Shown here piece after piece: positions 1 to 16,971 of a stretch of 29,802 nucleotides of DNA. The DNA lies in IMG/VR virus record IMGVR_UViG_3300045988_171260. One strand, 5' to 3'. The stretch's first letter is position 1; every line of letters starts with the position of its first letter. The position numbers and the translations under genes are program-made. The notes beneath the pieces are model-generated. The model did not search any database, was not told where the DNA came from, and was given only the letters and a program-made list of their open reading frames with translations. Origin of the DNA: a virus.

Positions 1-218
1 TCTACTTGTAAGGCATGCTTCATTTCATATACCATAAAAAGACCAATTATAAGGCTAGATATTGCCATAGATAGAGCTGAACCTATCCAAAGCGGTAAAT
101 TAAAAAGATGGCTTATAACAAATCCAAACCAATAAACTCCTTCCATGTACAACACAATCATTCTGTACAACATAATCATTCCTAAAATACAGGCAAATCC
201 CACTAAAAAGAAAAACAT
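1..218 (-). CDS. Small 2-TM membrane protein, 5' portion; ORF runs off window start. Paralog of 654..902.
   Basis: Minus-strand ATG at 216-218 preceded by AAGGAGGG RBS (219-232 on plus). Translation MFFFLVGFACILGMIMLY...VYEMKHALQVD aligns along its length with the 82-aa product of 654..902. No stop within window. Confidence 0.55.
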   Translation of the reverse strand, partial: MFFFLVGFACILGMIMLYRMIVLYMEGVYWFGFVISHLFNLPLWIGSALSMAISSLIIGLFMVYEMKHALQV

Positions 219-228
219 TTTACCCTCC

Positions 229-531
229 TTACCACCAAAGATTATCTTTCTCAGCTTCTTCGATTTCCGCGATATGAATTTCAGTATATTCAGGTGGAAT
301 AGATGGATAAAAGAACTCTTCAATTTGCTGAATCTCTTTTATTGTAATGCCTGGTTCAAAATCGCCAGACATAACAACAGCCGCCAATGTCTGAGCATCT
401 GTAATTTCAGTGTGATTATACCACCTTTCCGCTCTTGTTTTTATAGTTGCTGTAGATTCTATAATACCTTCTGTCTCAAAATAATCTGTAACCATTTTTA
501 CCGCGATTTCAATTAAATTTGTATTCATCAT
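229..531 (-). CDS. Hypothetical soluble protein (~100 aa), paralog of 924..1220. ORF track extends to 537; second ATG preferred by RBS spacing.
   Basis: Six-frame ORF 229..537. Conserved core NWYN(H/Y)TEITDA(Q/E)TLAAV..SGDF(E/K)PGITIKEI(Q/E)QI(E/K)EFF shared with the 924..1226 product. Leader aaagaaagaggtaATGtatATG gives GAGG 9 nt before the second ATG. Confidence 0.65.
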   Translation of the reverse strand: MMNTNLIEIAVKMVTDYFETEGIIESTATIKTRAERWYNHTEITDAQTLAAVVMSGDFEPGITIKEIQQIEEFFYPSIPPEYTEIHIAEIEEAEKDNLWW

Positions 532-578
532 ATACATTACCTCTTTCTTTCTTTTGATATAATAATTATATCATAATT

Positions 579-627
579 TTTAAAAAAAATAAAGTTATAT
601 AAATATAAACAACTATTTATATAACTT
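579..627 (-). terminator. Rho-independent terminator for the upstream minus-strand cassette
   Basis: 14-bp inverted repeat aagttatataaata/tatttatataactt (592-627) followed on the minus strand by a U8 run (plus-strand A-run 583-590). It sits just before the next promoter. Confidence 0.5.
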
Positions 628-653
628 TATGCTCTATTATTTTATTCTTTTAA

Positions 654-902
654 TTAAAAGAAATCATCTTCATCTTCATCTATTGCTTTTCCATAGCTAT
701 CATCTACTTCTAAAGCGTGCTTCATTTCATAAGCCATGAAAAGACCTACTATGAAGCTAACTATTATTATAGATATAACTGATGCTACCCAAAGCGATAA
801 ACCAAAAGCACAACTTATAATAAGTCCAAGACAATAAATCCCTCCAAGGTACAACATAATTGTTCCCAATATGTAAGCAATCTCCATTAAAAAGAAAAAC
901 AT
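654..902 (-). CDS. Small membrane protein (82 aa, two predicted TM helices, acidic C-tail DEDEDDFF)
   Basis: ORF track. GGAG RBS 9 nt upstream of ATG. Hydrophobic segments ILGTIMLYLGGIYCLGLIISCAFGLSLW and VISIIIVSFIVGLFMAY. Paralog of the partial gene at 1..218. Confidence 0.65.
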   Translation of the reverse strand: MFFFLMEIAYILGTIMLYLGGIYCLGLIISCAFGLSLWVASVISIIIVSFIVGLFMAYEMKHALEVDDSYGKAIDEDEDDFF

Positions 903-923
903 TTTAATTTTCTCCTTCTCATT

Positions 924-1220
924 TTATTTTATTTCCTCCATCATCATATCTCCGTCATAAAGGATATATTCTGGCGGAGTATGTGGAAAGAAAAATTCTT
1001 TAATTTGTTCAATCTCTTTTATTGTAATACCCGGCTTAAAATCTCCTGAAAGTGTAACTGCCGCCAGTGTTTCAGCGTCAGTAATCTCAGTGTAATTATA
1101 CCAGTTTTCTGCTTTTGCTTTAAAATTTGCTTTTAAATCTAAAGTTAGCGGGAAACCCTCTAATTTAAAAAAAGTTTCAATTTTTTTCATTGTAGCTTCG
1201 ATCAGTTTTGTGTTTGTCAT
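924..1220 (-). CDS. Hypothetical soluble protein (~98 aa), paralog of 229..531. Track start 1226.
   Basis: ORF track. About 50% identity to the 229..537 product over its full length. Same promoter-leader architecture: gaggtaATGcatATG. Confidence 0.65.
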   Translation of the reverse strand: MTNTKLIEATMKKIETFFKLEGFPLTLDLKANFKAKAENWYNYTEITDAETLAAVTLSGDFKPGITIKEIEQIKEFFFPHTPPEYILYDGDMMMEEIK

Positions 1221-1299
1221 ATGCATTACCTCTTTCTTTTGATATGTTTATTATATCATAAATTTTAAAAATAATAAAGTATATTTCTTTTATTAAGAT

Positions 1300-1347
1300 A
1301 AAAAAAATTATTATAATTAAGCAGTATTTTATACTGCTTAATTATAA
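1300..1347 (-). terminator. Rho-independent terminator ending the AAA/SprT operon
   Basis: Perfect 16-bp inverted repeat ttataattaagcagta/tactgcttaattataa (1311-1347) with a 5-nt loop. On the minus strand it is followed by a U8 run (plus-strand A-run 1300-1307). Confidence 0.6.
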
Positions 1348-1364
1348 TATAAAATAAAATTAAA

Positions 1365-2477
1365 TTAAAGTGCATAATGAATTCTTTCACTAGGAATTTT
1401 TTTAATCAGCATATATTCTGGTTTTGCAGAAATATATTTATTGTAAAGCTCTAAGCTTTGTTTAACTTCTGAATCATTTAAGCTTTCATTAATAACACAC
1501 TGTAAAGATTTACCTGGAATAATACAGCCATGTTCTTTATTGTAAATAGCATCTTTTGGGTTGAAAGTACACATTAGTACGTCAAACTTAAAAACGCTAT
1601 CTTCAAATTCATAGATTCTGCTCTTATTATCAAACATATCTACTAAACAATGGGGACATTCCGCAATAGCTCCATTCGAAAAATGAATAGTTAAATTATA
1701 ATTATCACCAGTAAGATGCAAAATATTCAAATCTTTAATAGCCTCTTCAAAAGTTTCTTCGTTTTGTAATTCAAAAGCAATGGCTCTTAAACAATCATAA
1801 TTCAAATATATTTTTTCTGAAAAACTAATTATTTTATCAATTTCTTTATATTGAGATTTTAAGAGATGATCTTCCATATACTCACGAATTTCCTCTGGGG
1901 TCGGATATTCAAAGCGGAAGTGATAATGAAAACGCCCTGGTCTATTAACTAAATAATTATTTAATCCTGTTAAAATATTACAAGTAATAACAAAAAGTTT
2001 TTTACCCATGGCTATTCCATCAAACAAACTTAGCAATTCTGTTTGAGCTTTTTCATTTCCACTTCTGGAAAAAGTCTTATCAAATTCATCAAAAAGAATT
2101 ATCACTTCTTGATTAATAGAGTTAAGATAACTTGCTATACCAGGTATATAGTTATTGACAATAATAATTGGATAACCTTTTTTAATACCTTCAATAGCAA
2201 GAAGTTTTGAGAATAGAGATTTACCAATCCCTTTATCCCCGCTTAATATAACTCCTAAGTTGCGGTCAAACTTAGCGTAAGACCTTAGTACTTTCTGTAC
2301 TTTTGATAAATGGACACCATAAATTTTTTCATTTACTTTAATTTCTGCATATTTTTCTAAAGAAAAACCAGAATTGGGATTAAAACAAACTTGATACGAT
2401 TGCGGCGGGAGTTGCGTATAAATTTGCATACTGTCATCATAAATTTTAAAGTTATTTCCAGTATTTATTGCTCTCAT
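1365..2477 (-). CDS. AAA+ ATPase of the classic clade (370 aa) with a Cys-containing C-terminal extension
   Basis: Walker A GDKGIGKS. Walker B IILFDEFDK. Sensor-1 VITCN. Second region of homology RPGRFHYHF (the RPGRF arginine-finger signature typical of FtsH/p97-type AAA proteins). C-terminal CPHC...C...C. Confidence 0.85.
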   Translation of the reverse strand: MRAINTGNNFKIYDDSMQIYTQLPPQSYQVCFNPNSGFSLEKYAEIKVNEKIYGVHLSKVQKVLRSYAKFDRNLGVILSGDKGIGKSLFSKLLAIEGIKKGYPIIIVNNYIPGIASYLNSINQEVIILFDEFDKTFSRSGNEKAQTELLSLFDGIAMGKKLFVITCNILTGLNNYLVNRPGRFHYHFRFEYPTPEEIREYMEDHLLKSQYKEIDKIISFSEKIYLNYDCLRAIAFELQNEETFEEAIKDLNILHLTGDNYNLTIHFSNGAIAECPHCLVDMFDNKSRIYEFEDSVFKFDVLMCTFNPKDAIYNKEHGCIIPGKSLQCVINESLNDSEVKQSLELYNKYISAKPEYMLIKKIPSERIHYAL

Positions 2478-2526: not shown

Positions 2527-3033
2527 TCAATTCCAATTTTGCACGATTCTCAGAGGAGCGTTACAACAACCAGAAGCCAAAGCACTTTCTCCTCTTGTTA
2601 AAGAGGAAGAAACATCTCCACGAGCTACTAGTTTACCGCATTTTTTGCAATAGATTTCATACTTATACAGATCACGATGAGGTTTCCATATCTGTCTTTC
2701 CGCGAATCGTTTAGGATTTTTAATTCCCATTCTTCGCATCTCTGCTTTCCAATACATATCATGACCATGAGGTTTTCCAGTATCCCATATTACAAAAGCA
2801 TGAGCCAATTCATGCATTGTCGTAGTAATAATTGCTTCTTTTGTTCCAAATTTTAATAATTTTTCAGAAAATTCAATAGATTCAATGTTCATAGTACGAT
2901 CATTTGTATGTTCAAATACAACTCGACCTAACATAGTAACTAAATTAGGATTAATTACGATTGGACAGTAAATTGTTTTATTTCTTTCTTTTGCGATATA
3001 ATTACATAAGCTAAGCATTTCTTTTTCAGTCAT
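2527..3033 (-). CDS. SprT-like zinc metallopeptidase (168 aa) with C-terminal zinc ribbon
   Basis: HEXXH motif HELAHAF followed by GKPHGHD. C-terminal YCKKCGK...GCCNAPL zinc ribbon. GAGG RBS. Co-oriented and adjacent to the AAA gene. Confidence 0.75.
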   Translation of the reverse strand: MTEKEMLSLCNYIAKERNKTIYCPIVINPNLVTMLGRVVFEHTNDRTMNIESIEFSEKLLKFGTKEAIITTTMHELAHAFVIWDTGKPHGHDMYWKAEMRRMGIKNPKRFAERQIWKPHRDLYKYEIYCKKCGKLVARGDVSSSLTRGESALASGCCNAPLRIVQNWN

Positions 3034-4572: not shown

Positions 4573-4932
4573 ATGGAAACTAGAGAAAATCAAAAGGTGG
4601 TTACAACTATGAAAGCTTTACATGACAGTAATAATTTATATTCTCCAGTTAATATTGAAGCAGCAAGTAAAGCAATGTCTTTGTTAAAACCTAATACTTT
4701 TAAAATTTGGTTTTATTTAGGAAAAAACCAAGATCAATATACTTTTGCATTATCTAAAATAGATGTTATGAAATTTTGTAATATATCGCGGTCTACTTAT
4801 TTATCTTCTATAAAGGAATTGATTGATACACATTATCTAGTTCCAGATAAAGATGGCTCTAATCATTATAATTTTTATGAATTTCCTCAAGAAGTAGAAG
4901 ATGATTTGATTATAACAATAAATAAAGGATAA
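4573..4932 (+). CDS. Hypothetical DNA-binding (winged-helix-like) protein, possibly replication-associated. Track start 4543.
   Basis: In-frame ATG at 4573 (METREN...) with GAGGAAGGA RBS. Segment KIWFYLGKNQDQYTFALSKIDVMKFCNISRSTYLSSIKEL resembles an initiator or replisome-organiser wHTH. Functional call is inference. Confidence 0.55.
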   Translation: METRENQKVVTTMKALHDSNNLYSPVNIEAASKAMSLLKPNTFKIWFYLGKNQDQYTFALSKIDVMKFCNISRSTYLSSIKELIDTHYLVPDKDGSNHYNFYEFPQEVEDDLIITINKG

Positions 4933-4942
4933 AATAAAGATA

Positions 4943-4982
4943 GGTATAATTTTAATACCCTTAAGGGTATTAAAATTATACC
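4943..4982. repeat. 40-bp perfect palindrome (ggtataattttaataccctt|aagggtattaaaattatacc). Candidate bidirectional terminator or cruciform.
   Basis: Read directly from the sequence. Lies 11 nt after the stop of 4573..4932, at the point where plus and minus transcription units converge. Confidence 0.8.
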
Positions 4983-4984
4983 TC

Positions 4985-5204
4985 AGTGGTATTAAAATTA
5001 TACCAGAAATAATACATATATTATATTATAAAAGAAGTAATTTCATTACTTCGTATTCAAGCACTTCGTGCTTTCATACTCGTAATGAAATTACTTCTTA
5101 GCCGCCGATAATTTTGTAAAATGTCGAAAAAGTGTAACACAATATAATATAATATAATAGTGGTATTAAAATTATACCAGAAATAATACATATATTATAT
5201 TATA
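4985..5204. repeat. ~46-bp direct repeat, two copies at ~4985-5030 and ~5159-5204. Each contains the hairpin tggtat-taaaat-tatacca followed by an (ATATT)n-like AT-repeat tail.
   Basis: agtggtattaaaattataccagaaataatacatatattatattata occurs twice. The second copy runs into atattatattatattatataataataat. Confidence 0.75.
5032..5099. repeat. 68-bp near-perfect palindrome with 18-bp perfect outer arms (aagaagtaatttcattac ... gtaatgaaattacttctt) and an inner agcacttcgtgct hairpin
   Basis: Read directly from the sequence. Outer arms are exact reverse complements. The centre contains a 5-bp stem with a TTC loop. Confidence 0.75.
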
Positions 5205-5227
5205 TTATATTATATAATAATAATATA

Positions 5228-6853: not shown

Positions 6854-6913
6854 CGGATCCGAGTCCTTTGAACTCGGACCGCTGATTATATCACAGCCGC
6901 CGCATTTTGTCAA
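6854..6913 (-). promoter_or_regulatory. Consensus promoter (TTGACA-17-TATAAT at 6885-6913) whose transcript begins with a GC-rich hairpin (6854-6881)
   Basis: Reverse complement reads ttgaca aaatgcggcggctgtga tataat cagc, then stem cggtccgagt/actcggatccg. Same promoter-plus-5'-hairpin architecture as at 10667-10695, 10850-10878 and 14239-14267. Confidence 0.55.
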
Positions 6914-7195
6914 TAGGCAAATTATATAAATTTTTCATTATTTTTTTAGTAATATTGCACAAAAAGTCATTTTTACCAAAAATTTCATTAAAAATAGGAT
7001 TTTTTTTGGTAAAAATGACTAAAATAAATAAAAATGTACAAAAAAATAGCCAAAAACCGCGTAATTTTTGGCTATTTTATATAGAATATAGAATTTTATT
7101 GAATTTTTATAAGAAATTTTAGTTATTTTGTATAGAATAGTCAGAAATGTAAATTTTCTGACTATTCTACGTAATTTTTAGTTACCTTGAACTGC

Positions 7196-7591
7196 TTACT
7201 CCTCTACAGCTTCCTCTTCCTCTTTTGCAAGAGAGAAATAAGGAACTCTTTTTTCAACTGTTCTAACTACCTCTCCAGATTCGATAAGCTGTTTAAGAAG
7301 AGCCGATAATTTCTGAGAAGAAAGTTTACTCATTTCAGAGTTTTCCTTAATCATGGTTGAAACTGTAACAGGTTTATCAAATAACTCCAAAGCTACAAGA
7401 ATAAGTTTTTTGACTTCCTCATTTTCTTTCTGGTTTTTGGTTTTTTTACCGCTGGAAGATTTTTTATTCAACAGCTCGATTTCATGTCTGAGAAAGTTAA
7501 GTGCTTCTTCTTTTGGTTCAAAGCTACTTTCTTCCAGAAAAGCACTGATAGTTTCAAACCAATCTTTTTTTGTCATTTTGTCTTTCATCAT
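7196..7591 (-). CDS. Hypothetical protein (~131 aa) with C-terminal winged-helix-like segment. Track start 7597.
   Basis: ORF track. Conserved leader gaggtaATGaatATG. C-terminal VTVSTMIKENSEMSKLSSQKLSALLKQLIESGEVVRTV resembles a wHTH. 13-bp perfect inverted repeat gaatagtcagaaa/tttctgactattc downstream at ~7147-7179. Confidence 0.65.
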   Translation of the reverse strand: MMKDKMTKKDWFETISAFLEESSFEPKEEALNFLRHEIELLNKKSSSGKKTKNQKENEEVKKLILVALELFDKPVTVSTMIKENSEMSKLSSQKLSALLKQLIESGEVVRTVEKRVPYFSLAKEEEEAVEE

Positions 7592-7624
7592 ATTCATTAC
7601 CTCTTTCTTTCTTTTGATATATTT

Positions 7625-7653
7625 ATTATAGCATACTTTTTTGTTTTTGTCAA
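7625..7653 (-). promoter_or_regulatory. Consensus promoter TTGACA-17-TATAAT for 7196..7591, part of a duplicated ~70-bp promoter-leader module
   Basis: Reverse complement reads ttgaca aaaacaaaaaagtatgc tataat aaatatatcaaaagaaagaaagaggtaatg. An identical module recurs at 7880-7947. Confidence 0.65.
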
Positions 7654-7684
7654 TTACTTTTTTTATTTTTTTCTTTTCTGGTGC

Positions 7685-7873
7685 TTATCTAATGTAAGCA
7701 CCAGCAATAGACTTAACAGAGCCATCAGCATTGAAAAAGATAACATTATTCTGGATAACGTTGATACCTTTATTCTTTGCAAAATTTCTGAACACAAAGT
7801 CTGTATTCCAGAGTTTGATAAAATCAGCTTTTCTCATGCTTGCAAAACCTTTTGTGTAATTCATTGTTCTCAT
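7685..7873 (-). CDS. Hypothetical small protein (~62 aa). Track start 7879 (TTG).
   Basis: ORF track. Preceded by an exact copy of the 7604-7670 promoter-leader module. ATG at 7873 has proper GAGG spacing. Confidence 0.55.
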   Translation of the reverse strand: MRTMNYTKGFASMRKADFIKLWNTDFVFRNFAKNKGINVIQNNVIFFNADGSVKSIAGAYIR

Positions 7874-7906
7874 AGACAATACCTCTTTCTTTCTTTTGAT
7901 ATATTT

Positions 7907-7935
7907 ATTATAGCATACTTTTTTGTTTTTGTCAA
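7907..7935 (-). promoter_or_regulatory. Consensus promoter TTGACA-17-TATAAT, second copy of the duplicated module
   Basis: Same sequence as 7625-7653. Confidence 0.65.
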
Positions 7936-7951
7936 TTACTTTTTTTATTTT

Positions 7952-8155
7952 TTAATTTTTTCCAAGATACTCTTCAAGATGCTCGTTTAAGAAATTTATA
8001 GTTTCATCCAACCCGTGAATCTCACAAAAGTTTTTAAAAGCTTTTTCAAGTTCTTTTGCTCTTGTATCTTTTATAACTTTTACGCAAGTGCCATACTCTT
8101 CTTTTGTAATAACAAAAGGAACGCATCCATCTTCTTTCAACGTAAAACTTCTCAT
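7952..8155 (-). CDS. Hypothetical small protein (67 aa)
   Basis: ORF track. RBS aaagggg. A 10-bp stem hairpin (8175-8203) lies immediately upstream of the RBS. Confidence 0.55.
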   Translation of the reverse strand: MRSFTLKEDGCVPFVITKEEYGTCVKVIKDTRAKELEKAFKNFCEIHGLDETINFLNEHLEEYLGKN

Positions 8156-8598: not shown

Positions 8599-8671
8599 GT
8601 TACATCACATCCTTTTTAAAATTTACTATTAACTTGTTACAATGGTATTATATCGCACCTTAGTTTAAAAG

Positions 8672-9382
8672 TCAAGCATTTTCGTGTAATTCTTTTCTTT
8701 TTTTCTGCGGTAGTCTCCAACATGACGGCTTAATACTTCTATCCATTTTTTTATGCTGGTCAAAACATTTTTTCATAATTTCAATTTCAATTTTTACATC
8801 TTCTAAACCTGTATGAGATTCTACAAAATCAATATTCTTTTTAATATATTTATAGCATACCTCAGCGTTAGTTAAAAGATTGCCTTTTTCAGACTCAAAT
8901 CCGTTTTTCTCAGCAAATTTGATATAGGTGTTTGTACTTAAAATCATCTGGCAAGCCATATTCCAAATACAAAAATATTCTGTGCCATAAGGGAAAAACC
9001 AGCGAATAAAACTTTTGCTATGGTATCTAATAGCATTGTTTAATGCTTTTCTATCAAAATTCATATTGTAAGCACCAACTTTTTTCACATTATATTCTTT
9101 CATGTCTGCAAACATCTGTTTTCTAATATTGAAGATGCTTTTCATGGTTCTTTTTCCGCTTTTTAAATCATCCCAATATTTTGGGATTTTTTTAGCGTAG
9201 TAGGCACTATTCATAGCTTCTTTCAAGTCAATAAATGTCTCAGCGACTACAAAGCTTCTTTCGGTGACAATGTTACCGTGTCTATCTGCAATAGCATAAC
9301 CAATATCATAAGGGATTGGCTCATTTACACTATTCGCAGTTTCTGTATCCAATACCATGAAAAACTCTTTTCTTCTACTCAT
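8672..9382 (-). CDS. DEDDh (DnaQ-like) 3'-5' exonuclease (~236 aa). Track start 9397 is a TTG.
   Basis: Exo I VLDTETA. Exo II YNMNFDRKAL. Exo III HTGLEDVKIE. ATG at 9382 with GAGGAAA RBS 6 nt upstream. Confidence 0.8.
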   Translation of the reverse strand: MSRRKEFFMVLDTETANSVNEPIPYDIGYAIADRHGNIVTERSFVVAETFIDLKEAMNSAYYAKKIPKYWDDLKSGKRTMKSIFNIRKQMFADMKEYNVKKVGAYNMNFDRKALNNAIRYHSKSFIRWFFPYGTEYFCIWNMACQMILSTNTYIKFAEKNGFESEKGNLLTNAEVCYKYIKKNIDFVESHTGLEDVKIEIEIMKKCFDQHKKMDRSIKPSCWRLPQKKRKELHENA

Positions 9383-9480
9383 TTTTGATTTCCTCAACTT
9401 TCATTTATTTTTTTTACTATTAACTTGTTACAATGGTATTATATCGCACCTTAGCTTAAAAGTCAAGCATTTTCGTTTAT

Positions 9481-9656
9481 TTTTTAAAATCTTTTAACTG
9501 CTGGTTTGTAGACAACTCTTTAATTTTATATTTATGTAATCTGTTGTTTAAACAATAAATGCATGAACCATGGTTTCTGCACTGCATTGATATTGCTTTT
9601 GCTTTGCGGTATTCTTTTCTATGCTCTTTACCACTTTTAATTGCTTTGTCCATCAT
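9481..9656 (-). CDS. Small Cys-containing protein (~58 aa), below the 60-aa ORF-track threshold
   Basis: Hand translation MMDKAIKSGKEHRKEYRKAKAISMQCRNHGSCIYCLNNRLHKYKIKELSTNQQLKDFKK. AGGTGG RBS 6 nt upstream. 18 nt after the stop of 9674..10147, in the same operon. Confidence 0.45.
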
Positions 9657-10147: not shown

Positions 10148-10591
10148 AATATCTACCAATCCTTCCCTTTTTGATTATCGCAAGTGCTTTGCGATTGACC
10201 GACCAATGATTATGTGAACCTTGCTTTGTTTCTGTTTTTTAAGTTTAATGTCCTTCGACAAGTATATATTACTACATCTTAGCGAAAAAGTCAAATTTAT
10301 TTTTTATTGTGCAAAGTGATGAAAATTTTACATAAAAATCATAGTATTTTTGTTAAAATGTACAAATGTAGAAAAATAATGCGGATTTAGGCAGATTTTT
10401 GTGCATTTTGCTATCTTAAATATCACATATTGTGTTTCTGCGTGTCAAAAAAGGTATGATTTTTTATTAAAATTTCGTCACTTTGCACAAGGTGTAGAAA
10501 ATCTTAGCATTATTTTATTAAATTTTGTACATTTTGTACACCATGTCAAAAAATGGGATTTTTTTAATTTATTTTTTGTGCAAATTGCCTA

Positions 10592-10621
10592 TTGACAAAA
10601 AGGTGCTAGATGTGGTATAAT
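10592..10621 (+). promoter_or_regulatory. Consensus promoter TTGACA-18-TGgTATAAT. Transcript starts with the GC hairpin 10627-10648. No downstream plus-strand gene.
   Basis: ttgaca aaaaggtgctagatgtgg tataat. Preceded by a tttgtgcaaattgcc tattgaca upstream element. Confidence 0.6.
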
Positions 10622-10666
10622 AAAATTTCGGGGTGCCCCGACCCCGAACGGAATTCGTCTACCTCC

Positions 10667-10695
10667 ATTATAACACAGCCGAGCCACCTTGTCAA
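10667..10695 (-). promoter_or_regulatory. Consensus promoter TTGACA-17-TGtTATAAT, convergent with the 10592 promoter. Its transcript runs through the same hairpin and then a U-run.
   Basis: Reverse complement reads ttgaca aggtggctcggctgtgt tataat. The predicted ~45-nt RNA ends in stem ttcgggg/ccccgaa plus AUUUUAUUAUA. Confidence 0.55.
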
Positions 10696-10705
10696 GAGTT
10701 TTTTC

Positions 10706-10740
<35 letters not shown>

Positions 10741-10783
10741 AATTTTAGGATAAAAATTTTAAAAAATTTGTGCATTTTTTCTC

Positions 10784-10812
10784 TTGACAAAATGTCTCAA
10801 CTATGTTATAAT
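10784..10812 (+). promoter_or_regulatory. Consensus promoter TTGACA-17-TATAAT. Transcript starts with GC hairpin 10821-10847.
   Basis: ttgaca aaatgtctcaactatgt tataat. Upstream tttgtgcattttttctc element. Confidence 0.6.
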
Positions 10813-10849
10813 GGAAGGCTCGGCTCGCATGGGCTGCTCGCGAGCCGCT

Positions 10850-10878
10850 ATTATAACACATTTTCCGCGACTTGTCAA
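10850..10878 (-). promoter_or_regulatory. Consensus promoter TTGACA-17-TGtTATAAT, convergent with the 10784 promoter across hairpin cggctcgc/gcgagccg
   Basis: Reverse complement reads ttgaca agtcgcggaaaatgtgt tataat agcggctcgcgagcagcccatgcgagccg. Confidence 0.55.
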
Positions 10879-10896
10879 CCCCTTTTAAAAAATTTT

Positions 10897-14238: not shown

Positions 14239-14267
14239 ATTATAACACCTTTAGCTCATTCTGTCAA
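14239..14267 (-). promoter_or_regulatory. Consensus promoter TTGACA-17-TGtTATAAT firing into the gene-free, extremely AT-rich tract 13830-14230
   Basis: Reverse complement reads ttgaca gaatgagctaaaggtgt tataat. Its -35 is the first copy of the TGTCAATAGACA 12-mer. Confidence 0.5.
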
Positions 14268-14529
14268 TAGACATTTTACACAATTTTTTCTTTTGATTTT
14301 CGTGCAGATTGCCCATTGACATTTCTTGTCTATTGACATTTTGTACAAAAATCAAATTATATTTTTGTATACTTTTACCATTGACAGGACTTGTCAATAG
14401 ACATAATGCACAAAATTTTCCTTGCATTTTTGTGCAATTTTACCTATTGACAAACTCATTTTAGGAAAATATCTTTGTGCATTTTTTACAAAAATTTAGC
14501 CAAAAATTTGTGCATTTTGTCTATTGACA
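14262..14529. repeat. Four copies of the 12-mer TGTCAATAGACA in alternating orientation (14262, 14327 rc, 14392, 14518 rc), interleaved with TTTGTGCA(A/T)TTT and (t/c)attgaca motifs
   Basis: Exact 12-mers read from the sequence. Each carries TGTC-N4-GACA dyad symmetry and a TTGACA hexamer on one strand. Confidence 0.75.
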
Positions 14530-15813: not shown

Positions 15814-16971
15814 ATGACACCAATAATAATAGAAGATGAAGCTTTTGAGGAGAATATTTTAGAAGAAGAAAAAACAACAGAAAAACAAATCAAAGAAGAA
15901 AATATACAAACTACTATTAAATTAGATTATTCTTTAGAGACTCCTGAAGAGCGGAATGAATTAGTTAAAAAAATTATAAATAATACTCCTTCTGAGCAAT
16001 TAACACCTAGATATTTAGAAATATTGTCAGATTACATTATTTTTGCTATGGATAAACAAGAGCGGAAACAAAAGCAAATATTAACTGATAATCACATGGT
16101 CACAGTTAACAAAAGAGAAACTTCTTTTGAAGGATTAGTTGGTCGCTTAGAGAATGGCGAAGATGGCATTTATAATATGATTGCTAATGATAAGAATATT
16201 ATCTTTACACCTAAATTTCAAATAACTCAACAAGATATTGCGGAAATCCCCGAGTTAAAACAACTTGTAGACGCGATTGCGGAAGTTGAAAAAGCTGAGA
16301 AAAAAGCAGTTGGTAAAAAGAAATTTTTATTAAAAAAGCAACTTATTGCTATGAGACAAGATCAATATGTAATTAGAAGTGCATATAAGCCGCCAATTTA
16401 TTGTATGAACGCAATTAAAAGTTTTAGCAAAATTGATTTTGATGAAAATGTTTCTATTAGCGGAGATGATGAAATTGAAGATAATAGCTTAGTTTCTTTT
16501 TTTAATCCTAAGCACGTATCTGCGTTATTATGTAACTATTCCCGCCTAAAAGAAGATGCATGGGGAAAATTCTATAGTGATTCATACTTTTTAATGGAAG
16601 ATTTAGATACATTAATAGAAAAGACTTTAAGAGACAGCTATCCAATGTATTATGACCTCTTGATTTATAAAATAGATGGAAAACAAAATCTTGAAATTCA
16701 AAGCCTATTGAATCAAAAGCATAATGTAAAACATTCAGTGGAATATATATCATCTTTGTGGCGGAATAAGATACCTAAGCTATTGTCAGAGCAAGCTCAG
16801 GAAGACTACTTAATTTGGTATTATACGACTCAGAAGAAGGGAAAATGGAAAAAATGTTCCCGCTGTGGGGAAATCAAATTAGCTCATAATAAATTTTTTT
16901 CAAAGAATAAGACAAGCAAAGATCATTTTTACAGTATATGTAAATGTTGTCGAAATAAGAAAAATAAGTAA
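15814..16971 (+). CDS. Hypothetical protein (385 aa), acidic N-terminus, C-terminal zinc ribbon
   Basis: ORF track. CSRCGE...CKCC at the C-terminus. First gene of the structural operon. Confidence 0.7.
   Translation: MTPIIIEDEAFEENILEEEKTTEKQIKEENIQTTIKLDYSLETPEERNELVKKIINNTPSEQLTPRYLEILSDYIIFAMDKQERKQKQILTDNHMVTVNKRETSFEGLVGRLENGEDGIYNMIANDKNIIFTPKFQITQQDIAEIPELKQLVDAIAEVEKAEKKAVGKKKFLLKKQLIAMRQDQYVIRSAYKPPIYCMNAIKSFSKIDFDENVSISGDDEIEDNSLVSFFNPKHVSALLCNYSRLKEDAWGKFYSDSYFLMEDLDTLIEKTLRDSYPMYYDLLIYKIDGKQNLEIQSLLNQKHNVKHSVEYISSLWRNKIPKLLSEQAQEDYLIWYYTTQKKGKWKKCSRCGEIKLAHNKFFSKNKTSKDHFYSICKCCRNKKNK

Follow-up and report, generated by a model that had tools for sequence, protein, structure and literature searches.

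This study concerns a tandemly duplicated two-gene unit at the beginning of a 29,802-nucleotide (nt) stretch of viral DNA, IMG/VR virus record IMGVR_UViG_3300045988_171260, which is referred to as the window throughout. The piece studied comprises positions 1..1364, and every gene of the duplicated array lies on its minus strand. Each unit contains an extended -10 element, a Shine-Dalgarno leader, a gene for an acidic soluble protein of ~100 amino acids (aa), a gene for a membrane protein of ~82-88 aa and an AT-rich terminator. In the order of transcription, the gene of an ATPase and its terminator are followed by unit B (solB, memB and a hairpin) and then by unit A (solA and memA). The direct-repeat spacing of the two units is 680-702 base pairs (bp), corresponding to a unit length of ~690 bp, and the terminator of the ATPase gene forms the upstream boundary of the array. 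The features are as follows.

1..218, minus strand: memA, copy-A membrane protein, first 72 codons, the remainder lying past the window edge; assigned by translation, hydropathy and identity with memB
229..531, minus strand: solA, copy-A soluble protein, 100 aa; an alternative ATG lies at 537
532..564, minus strand: copy-A 5' leader with the Shine-Dalgarno sequence TATTATATCAAAAGAAAGAAAGAGGTAATGTAT, conserved between the copies
565..573, minus strand: copy-A extended -10 element TGATATAAT, with an A/T-rich tract 5' of it and a weak -35
581..630, minus strand: copy-B intrinsic terminator, a 17-bp AT-rich hairpin (589..630) with a U8 tract (581..588)
654..902, minus strand: memB, copy-B membrane protein, 82 aa, a hydrophobic hairpin with a GG turn
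924..1220, minus strand: solB, copy-B soluble protein, 98 aa; an alternative ATG lies at 1226
1221..1249 and 1250..1258, minus strand: copy-B leader with its Shine-Dalgarno sequence, and copy-B extended -10 element TGATATAAT
1309..1349, minus strand: intrinsic terminator of the upstream ATPase gene, a 19-bp stem with 3 G-C pairs and a U8 tract
1365..2477, minus strand: AAA+/nSTAND3-like ATPase (Pfam AAA and nSTAND3, phrog_2376), a context gene

Relatives of the window are designated below by L numbers. Full-length memA in these relatives encodes 86-88 aa, and the complete gene is visible in L003 and L026. The start of memA is located 10 nt after the solA stop codon, with GGAGGG in between. In copy B the corresponding distance is 21 nt in the window strain, and in relatives such as L003 the solB stop abuts the memB start; a 5-nt repeat (TAAAA) truncates the solB of the window strain by 5 codons relative to L003.

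The array almost certainly arose by a tandem duplication, specific to this lineage, of an autonomous bicistronic early operon, and we hold the statements on its architecture and evolution with high confidence. When we aligned the two units as DNA, 80% of the columns were identical, with the promoter and the leader included. At the protein level, solA and solB are 59% identical over 87 aa (E 1e-37), and memA and memB are 54% identical (E 3e-22). These values bear out the tandem duplication of a whole two-gene unit that had been proposed in the initial annotation of this DNA; the paralogy of the soluble proteins stands as well, and their measured identity is higher than the ~50% estimated there. 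The ratios of nonsynonymous to synonymous substitution rates (dN/dS) between the copies, calculated with the NG86 method, were 0.22 for the soluble gene (0.12 in its conserved core) and 0.44 for the membrane gene. These ratios indicate that purifying selection has maintained both copies, with no sign of positive diversifying selection.

Two units are found only in the window lineage, which comprises the window, L002-L008, L026 and L027; the L009 contig ends before the second unit. Four close relatives (L011, L012, L029 and L030) have a single unit. In L011 and L012 the soluble gene is chimeric, with a B-type N-terminal half and an A-type C-terminal half, and is followed by an A-type membrane gene; the two chimeras switch cleanly at different points, both within the conserved core of the soluble gene. 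L029 and L030 retain the B-type soluble gene, and the membrane gene of L030 combines a B-type body with an A-type tail, the alignment of this relative with the window stopping at the solA leader. In addition, L006 and L027 have two units in which the membrane genes are mosaic or strongly divergent. Judged from these sequences, the single-copy and mosaic variants fit the pattern expected from repeated unequal recombination and gene conversion between tandem repeats. Assembly collapse is an unlikely origin of the single-copy variants, since the chimeric junctions differ, the identical stretches are short (at the L011 junction, copies A and B share no identical stretch longer than ~11 nt, as read from the alignment) and the single unit of L030 lies in a 137-kb contig. 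The single-copy relatives indicate that either copy is dispensable, and the collapse to one copy in four of them suggests redundancy. Based on this collapse and on the purifying selection, the diversifying function that the duplication had been taken to imply was not borne out.

The putative promoters of both units are of the extended -10 type with an A/T-rich upstream tract and resemble those of host sigma-A. The window contains 6 occurrences of the 9-mer TGATATAAT, where 1.2 would be expected. The -35 region of both units is weak, since TTTATT, as read by eye, has 3 of the 6 consensus bases, and a strict consensus promoter scan called neither promoter. Thus, of the consensus promoter previously assigned to each unit, the extended -10 element stands and the -35 element does not. 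The leader contains a 12-mer, AAAGAGGTAATG, found 4 times against 0.41 expected, and AAAGAGG is present in both leaders, in agreement with the conserved leader noted earlier for each unit. Translation likely starts at the second of two in-frame leader ATGs, which is favoured by its spacing of 8 nt after GAGG and by database gene calls starting with MTNTKL; the start coordinates given initially agree with this second ATG.

The copy-B terminator hairpin with its U8 tract has a folding energy of -15.5 kcal/mol (z -4.45), and the terminator of the ATPase gene one of -20.8 kcal/mol (z -7.0). The copy-A terminator lies outside the window and is present in L026, where it is homologous to the hairpin and T-run after memB. 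Since the window is 99.9% identical to L026, each unit has its own promoter and terminator, as had been claimed. Past the memA terminator of L026, a further promoter of the same type drives a gene of 189 aa. The terminator at 581..630 and the copy-A promoter together form a composite terminator-promoter cassette, and three mutually homologous cassettes of this kind bound the two units; other promoters share the leader, not the hairpin. Within the minus-strand, non-structural half of the window, the promoter-leader module recurs as a repeat family of at least 8 copies, several of which have a terminator hairpin 5' of them; in the early half, 4-8 copies were counted of each of the promoter-leader repeat families D1, D2 and D5. 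The structural half opens with a sigma-factor gene under its own consensus sigma-A promoter, and the structural genes after it show a single weak sigma-A-like match. Based on the promoter type, from which the timing is deduced, both units would be transcribed early by the host RNA polymerase. Elsewhere on the minus strand, at 7588-7990, a second tandem promoter pair (7633 and 7915) was observed, in which the promoters are 282 bp apart, 94% identical and of the form TTGACA-17-TGCTATAAT. Its leader is as in the cassette, and it drives a 133-aa acidic protein (7597..7196) and a protein of ~62 aa.

The soluble protein is predicted to be cytoplasmic, acidic and all-helical. The isoelectric points (pI) of solA and solB are 4.2 and 4.7, respectively, each chain of ~100 aa containing 17-20 acidic and 6-11 basic residues, and no hydrophobic segment was seen in the hydropathy profile of either protein. 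The AlphaFold2 model of solB (mean pLDDT confidence score 83.5) contains four helices, and that of solA, built from a 47-sequence alignment (pLDDT 82.5), contains four helices and an additional C-terminal helix. The family consensus includes MxN..LI, WYNHT(D/E)ITDAE(T/M)LAA, EFYFP and a C-terminal HIxEIEEAxxDxxW(W/R); the ancestral C-terminal motif IxEIEEAxxDxxWW is retained in solA and replaced in solB. When the model was compared with BFVD using Foldseek, the sole match was an unnamed viral protein with 33% identity, evidently a family member. The best structural match is RuvA domain III, with a sequence identity of 13-15% and a fold that is very common. On the basis of the models, the core appears to resemble the small protein-binding three-helix bundles of the RuvA domain III or ubiquitin-associated (UBA) type, to which the soluble protein adds an N-terminal helix and a C-terminal amphipathic helix. 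This likeness does not imply a DNA-repair context.

The membrane proteins have a grand average of hydropathicity (GRAVY) of 1.0-1.2, and a GG(G) turn divides their stretch of ~58 contiguous hydrophobic residues. From hydropathy they likely have two transmembrane helices, and from hydropathy and charge bias these would form a hairpin with both ends in the cytoplasm (N-in/C-in). The tail is acidic (EVDDSYGKAIDEDEDDFF; DEDEDDFF in memB), and the pI of the protein is 4.1. Distant homologues end in DDAM, KEE, EHDL or DELA and have K/R-rich N-termini and a common signature, GGG-x-I-x4-F-x2-P-x-W.

Neither the soluble nor the membrane protein had been assigned to a recognised family, and this agrees with our searches, in which no significant match to either protein was found in Pfam, PHROGs, NCBIfam, PADLOC or the sequences of the Protein Data Bank (PDB). 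A comparison of 63 soluble and 13 membrane homologues with these collections likewise gave no significant match, the superinfection-exclusion families of PHROGs and Pfam included. A word-indexed search of 5.8 billion proteins returned 12 relatives of solB and 23 of memB, and an exhaustive profile search of 1.84 billion representatives returned 116 representatives of the soluble family at E<=1e-3, 48 of them at E<=1e-10. These 116 cluster representatives (50% identity clusters) are all metagenomic, and nearly all are stand-alone proteins of 75-130 aa. No match was found when three family members were searched with tblastn against 50,697 deposited phage genomes, and a search of 185,579 bacterial and archaeal species genomes (GTDB), by alignment and with a degenerate DNA pattern, did not detect the soluble family. 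This pattern, for WYNHT(D/E)I, gave 0 loci in the genomes and 1 in IMG/VR (L035, of the lineage of L019); an alignment-based locus search of IMG/VR gave none. One IMG/VR match, L001 (39% over 63 aa), was rejected, since it is a chance match to part of a protein that resembles a tail fibre and is encoded by an unrelated phage. Downstream of the homologous ATPase of Enterococcus phage EFDG1 and Staphylococcus phage S-CoN_Ph10, neither an equivalent gene pair nor synteny was seen. Based on these searches, both protein families appear to be undescribed and confined to an uncultivated phage clade. An alternative genetic code, as found in the related phAss-1 group (PMC10607447), is irrelevant here, because all four cassette genes that end in the window or in L026 stop at TAA.

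We then inspected the gene after the soluble gene in each distinct lineage, of which 13 were informative. A small hydrophobic open reading frame (ORF) of 45-88 aa follows the soluble gene in 11 of them (the window lineage, L010, L013, L015, L017/18, L019/20/L035, L025, L028, L032, L033 and L034), which answers positively the question of co-occurrence in relatives that the initial annotation had raised. The two genes overlap or are 1-13 nt apart in most lineages, and the gap is ~50 nt in L033 and 150 nt in L015; in L034, a hydrophobic ORF of 46 aa comes first, between the soluble gene and the membrane gene. The pair of L010 is bounded by its own promoter and terminator. Based on the tight spacing, the co-duplication and the common promoter-terminator boundaries, we regard the soluble and membrane genes as one unit.

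In the mechanism that we propose, the host RNA polymerase would transcribe both units directly after infection, and the soluble and membrane products would be co-produced and act as a complex at the cytoplasmic membrane face, where the N-in/C-in hairpin protein would anchor, or be regulated by, the soluble protein. The complex would serve an early accessory function at the cell envelope, namely host takeover or the exclusion of superinfecting phage. The second copy would be largely redundant, giving extra dosage or slightly shifted specificity, and would be gained and lost via unequal recombination between the repeated regulatory cassettes and the coding repeats. Taken as a whole, with architecture and function blended, this is our best explanation, and we put its chances at about even. 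The envelope complex with its takeover or exclusion function is, by itself, a tentative and somewhat doubtful proposal, within which superinfection exclusion is a possible role. A bolder version would have an undescribed two-component early system that defines a clade of ~140-kb uncultivated gut Firmicutes phages. In it, a dedicated micro-protein would bring a UBA/RuvA-III-like adaptor to the membrane, where the adaptor would keep competing phages from entering or block a process of the host envelope, and the diverged copies would recognise different targets; we consider this version rather unlikely.

Several observations weigh against a dedicated soluble-membrane system. No functional homologue was found for either protein, and the function is read from context. 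In L023 and L024 the membrane gene is absent and the next gene starts 12 nt past the soluble stop, so that the soluble protein can function alone or with another partner. A downstream protein of 188-190 aa (phrog_30451/2319, OB-like) is linked to the soluble gene as consistently as the membrane gene is, lying within two genes of it in 9 of 10 informative lineages. Synteny among related phages may also mirror shared ancestry instead of functional coupling, and since the gene of 188-190 aa and the ATPase are likewise syntenic, shared ancestry accounts for part of the linkage.

In the strongest alternative, the true partners of the soluble protein are the upstream AAA+ ATPase and/or the downstream OB-like protein of 188-190 aa, acting in DNA metabolism, and the membrane protein is a tether or organiser, or an unrelated inserted gene. 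Membrane-associated replication organisers are found in phi29-type phages. This reading would draw on the constancy of the downstream gene and on the ATPase, which lies directly upstream of the soluble gene in 8 of 16 related lineages (a different gene is upstream in ~5, and in the rest the contig end is too close). It would also draw on the structural likeness to RuvA domain III, a module that docks onto the AAA+ motor RuvB, on L023, in which the 189-aa gene is directly 3' of the soluble gene, and on the SprT-like, NADAR, ScpB-like and exonuclease-like genes of the neighbourhood. However, the co-duplication is limited to the soluble and membrane genes and involves neither the ATPase gene nor the 189-aa gene. 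Between the pair and the 189-aa gene, the window lineage and L010 have a terminator and a new promoter, and in L033 an SprT gene stands between the intact pair and this next conserved gene. Moreover, the upstream ATPase is absent in L010, L013, L018, L023 and L024, and we judge a DNA-metabolism role to be fairly improbable. The acidity of the soluble protein could instead point to an anti-defence module, in which an acidic early protein counters host defence or restriction, as an inhibitor or as a substrate mimic, and the diverged duplication reflects an arms race. The early-type promoter, the restriction of the family to phages (it was found neither in the bacterial genomes nor in the cultured phages searched) and the copy number that varies between strains would suit such a role. 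On the contrary, conservation is highest in a core motif that looks buried (WYNHT-ITDAE-LAA, EFYFP) and not in a pattern of surface charge, dN/dS is well below 1, no known anti-restriction or anti-CRISPR fold was matched in the PDB or BFVD searches, and the conserved membrane partner is left unexplained, all of which makes this role quite unlikely.

A holin-like membrane protein with a partner had also been suggested; the partner would then be a cytoplasmic, antiholin-type regulator that times lysis. Like class II holins, the membrane protein is small and has two hydrophobic stretches, but the best match to a holin hidden Markov model (HMM), Phage_holin_3_6, scored 14.7 bits against a cut-off of 28.4 and was given only by close paralogues, and no holin PHROG was matched. 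The C-terminal tail is strongly acidic where holin tails are basic, and the soluble protein has no signal anchor, unlike the T4 RI antiholin. The genes are placed in the early region behind a host-type promoter, their neighbours being an SprT-like gene, the AAA ATPase gene and the 189-aa gene, and no endolysin gene adjoins the cassette, the nearest cell-wall-hydrolase-like gene being ~6 kb off in L003. We therefore consider lysis control very unlikely. For a toxin/immunity pair, also listed among the initial candidate roles, or a toxin-antitoxin pair, the chances are smaller still. A two-gene operon of variable copy number that encodes a small membrane protein and a soluble partner has the outline of such a pair; yet no toxin, antitoxin, immunity or defence model was matched in Pfam, PHROGs, NCBIfam or PADLOC, and the family was found neither in the GTDB species genomes nor in the plasmid-like contexts examined. 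The position of the genes is fixed in the early region of a lytic-type phage, and two lineages, L023 and L024, have the soluble gene without the membrane gene.

The arrangement recalls the promoter-early stem-loop (PeSL) cassettes of T4-type phages. These surround small nonessential ORFs in hyperplastic regions and bring about the shuffling, duplication and loss of such ORFs (Arbiol et al. 2010, PMC2839356; Comeau et al. 2014, PMC4122927). As in PeSL cassettes, a stem-loop terminator is followed by a sigma-70-type promoter, here the hairpin at 589..630 with its U8 tract and then TGATATAAT at 565..573, and the same order is found after memA (in L026) and before solB. Sequence-similar copies surround small early ORFs, either unit being dispensable according to the single-copy relatives, and the flanked genes have been gained or lost between close relatives. 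There are also differences. The present phage is unrelated to T4-type phages, being a low-GC, Firmicutes-type phage of ~140 kb with siphovirus-like relatives, and only three of the present cassettes are clearly homologous to one another. With regard to the endpoints of the copy-number changes, two of the four single-copy variants (L011 and L012) join inside the coding repeat of the soluble gene and not in the cassettes, whereas the end of the L030 alignment at the solA leader is consistent with a cassette junction.

Host-takeover modules of large Firmicutes phages, such as the gene 37-60 cluster of SPO1, contain many short early genes with strong host-type promoters and ribosome-binding sites, and some of them encode small membrane proteins. 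The present cluster of short genes resembles such modules in its repeated consensus-like sigma-A promoters, its strong Shine-Dalgarno leader and its small membrane products, but it shows no sequence similarity to PHROGs containing such genes. The superinfection-exclusion proteins T4 Imm and Sp, lactococcal Sie2009 and HK97 gp15 are small phage membrane proteins expressed from host-type promoters, often as autonomous promoter-gene-terminator units. The membrane protein described here is likewise small and encoded in an autonomous unit with a host-type promoter, although no homology to these proteins was detected and the known systems consist of a single membrane protein and lack a conserved cytoplasmic partner.

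Small early operons that are duplicated in tandem and flanked by repeated regulatory cassettes are nothing unusual in large phages, and the novelty is limited to two undescribed protein families in an uncultivated phage clade. These two unannotated families can be defined, along with the conserved pairing of their genes and naturally occurring variants with one or two copies, and they provide a handle for annotating a recurrent block of large gut phage genomes. The locus also offers a natural example, outside T4-like phages, of gene duplication and loss bounded by regulatory cassettes. The finding alone opens no long-standing question, and its value rises only if the pair represents a new exclusion or takeover mechanism.

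Outside the cassette, the window encodes a phage sigma factor (15814..16971), the large terminase, the portal and other structural proteins. Related contigs are 134-141 kb long, and the phage is ~140 kb in size. The portal is 78% identical to that of an unannotated record from human faeces, 39.5% identical to that of phAss-1 and ~32% identical to those of the ~140-kb Enterococcus EF1-like phages; phAss-1 and the EF1-like phages are the nearest named relatives. The paper describing phAss-1 placed the broad group in gut viromes and suggested Clostridia as hosts (PMC10607447). No tRNA was found in the window, and an Rfam scan of the whole window gave no matches.

Among the neighbouring genes, the homologue of the 188-190-aa protein in L010 (L010:5688-6551) is fused to an N-terminal segment with two CxxCxGxG motifs, which are DnaJ zinc-finger-like. 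Two genes downstream of the cassette in L003 (L003:11955-12311), a protein of ~113-124 aa has an N-terminal transmembrane helix and an invariant K..HPDNGG..F..Y block, and homologues are present in L017, L018, L023, L025, L033 and L034. This block resembles the helix II-HPD-helix III segment of the J-domain, and profiles of the DnaJ and T-antigen J-domains match it in register at weak scores (E 0.14-0.5), which suggests that the protein may be a membrane-anchored mini J-protein. Together, the fusion in L010 and the J-like neighbour might be read as a hint of chaperone hijacking. In other relatives, extra small hydrophobic ORFs of 54-93 aa are located between the ATPase gene and the soluble gene (L019:4649-4930, L035:4910-5191 and L032:2216-2380), and the locus seems to accumulate genes for micro-membrane-proteins. 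A further copy-number polymorphism in the same early region involves the SprT-like gene, which is single in the window (2527-3033) and in L012 and is present as two tandem genes (166 and 168 aa) in most close relatives, among L002-L009 and L011, which were compared; the tandem genes lie at 7659-8682 in L002-L007.

Several repeats were observed elsewhere in the window. The region 10590-10880 is free of ORFs and contains two sets of consensus promoters that face each other (TTGACA-17-TGnTATAAT, on both strands) around short palindromic segments rich in GC, with ~30 nt of poly(A) between the sets and repeated TTTGTGCA motifs around them; it has no Rfam match and may represent convergently transcribed small RNAs or an origin-like region. 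At 4900-5210, two 60-nt repeats with TGGTATAAT, 90% identical and 174 bp apart, lie among TATAA(T) runs in a stretch of ~23% GC between divergent gene blocks. Three copies of a 45-nt iteron-like element that starts with TGTCAATAGACA are found at 14260-14440 with a spacing of 65 bp, upstream of a consensus promoter at 14247, and a distant fourth copy lies at 6908-6952. Finally, a 73-nt direct repeat with 95% identity (8622-8694 and 9413-9485) flanks the gene of a 241-aa exonuclease-like protein (8672..9397; phrog_20187/192).

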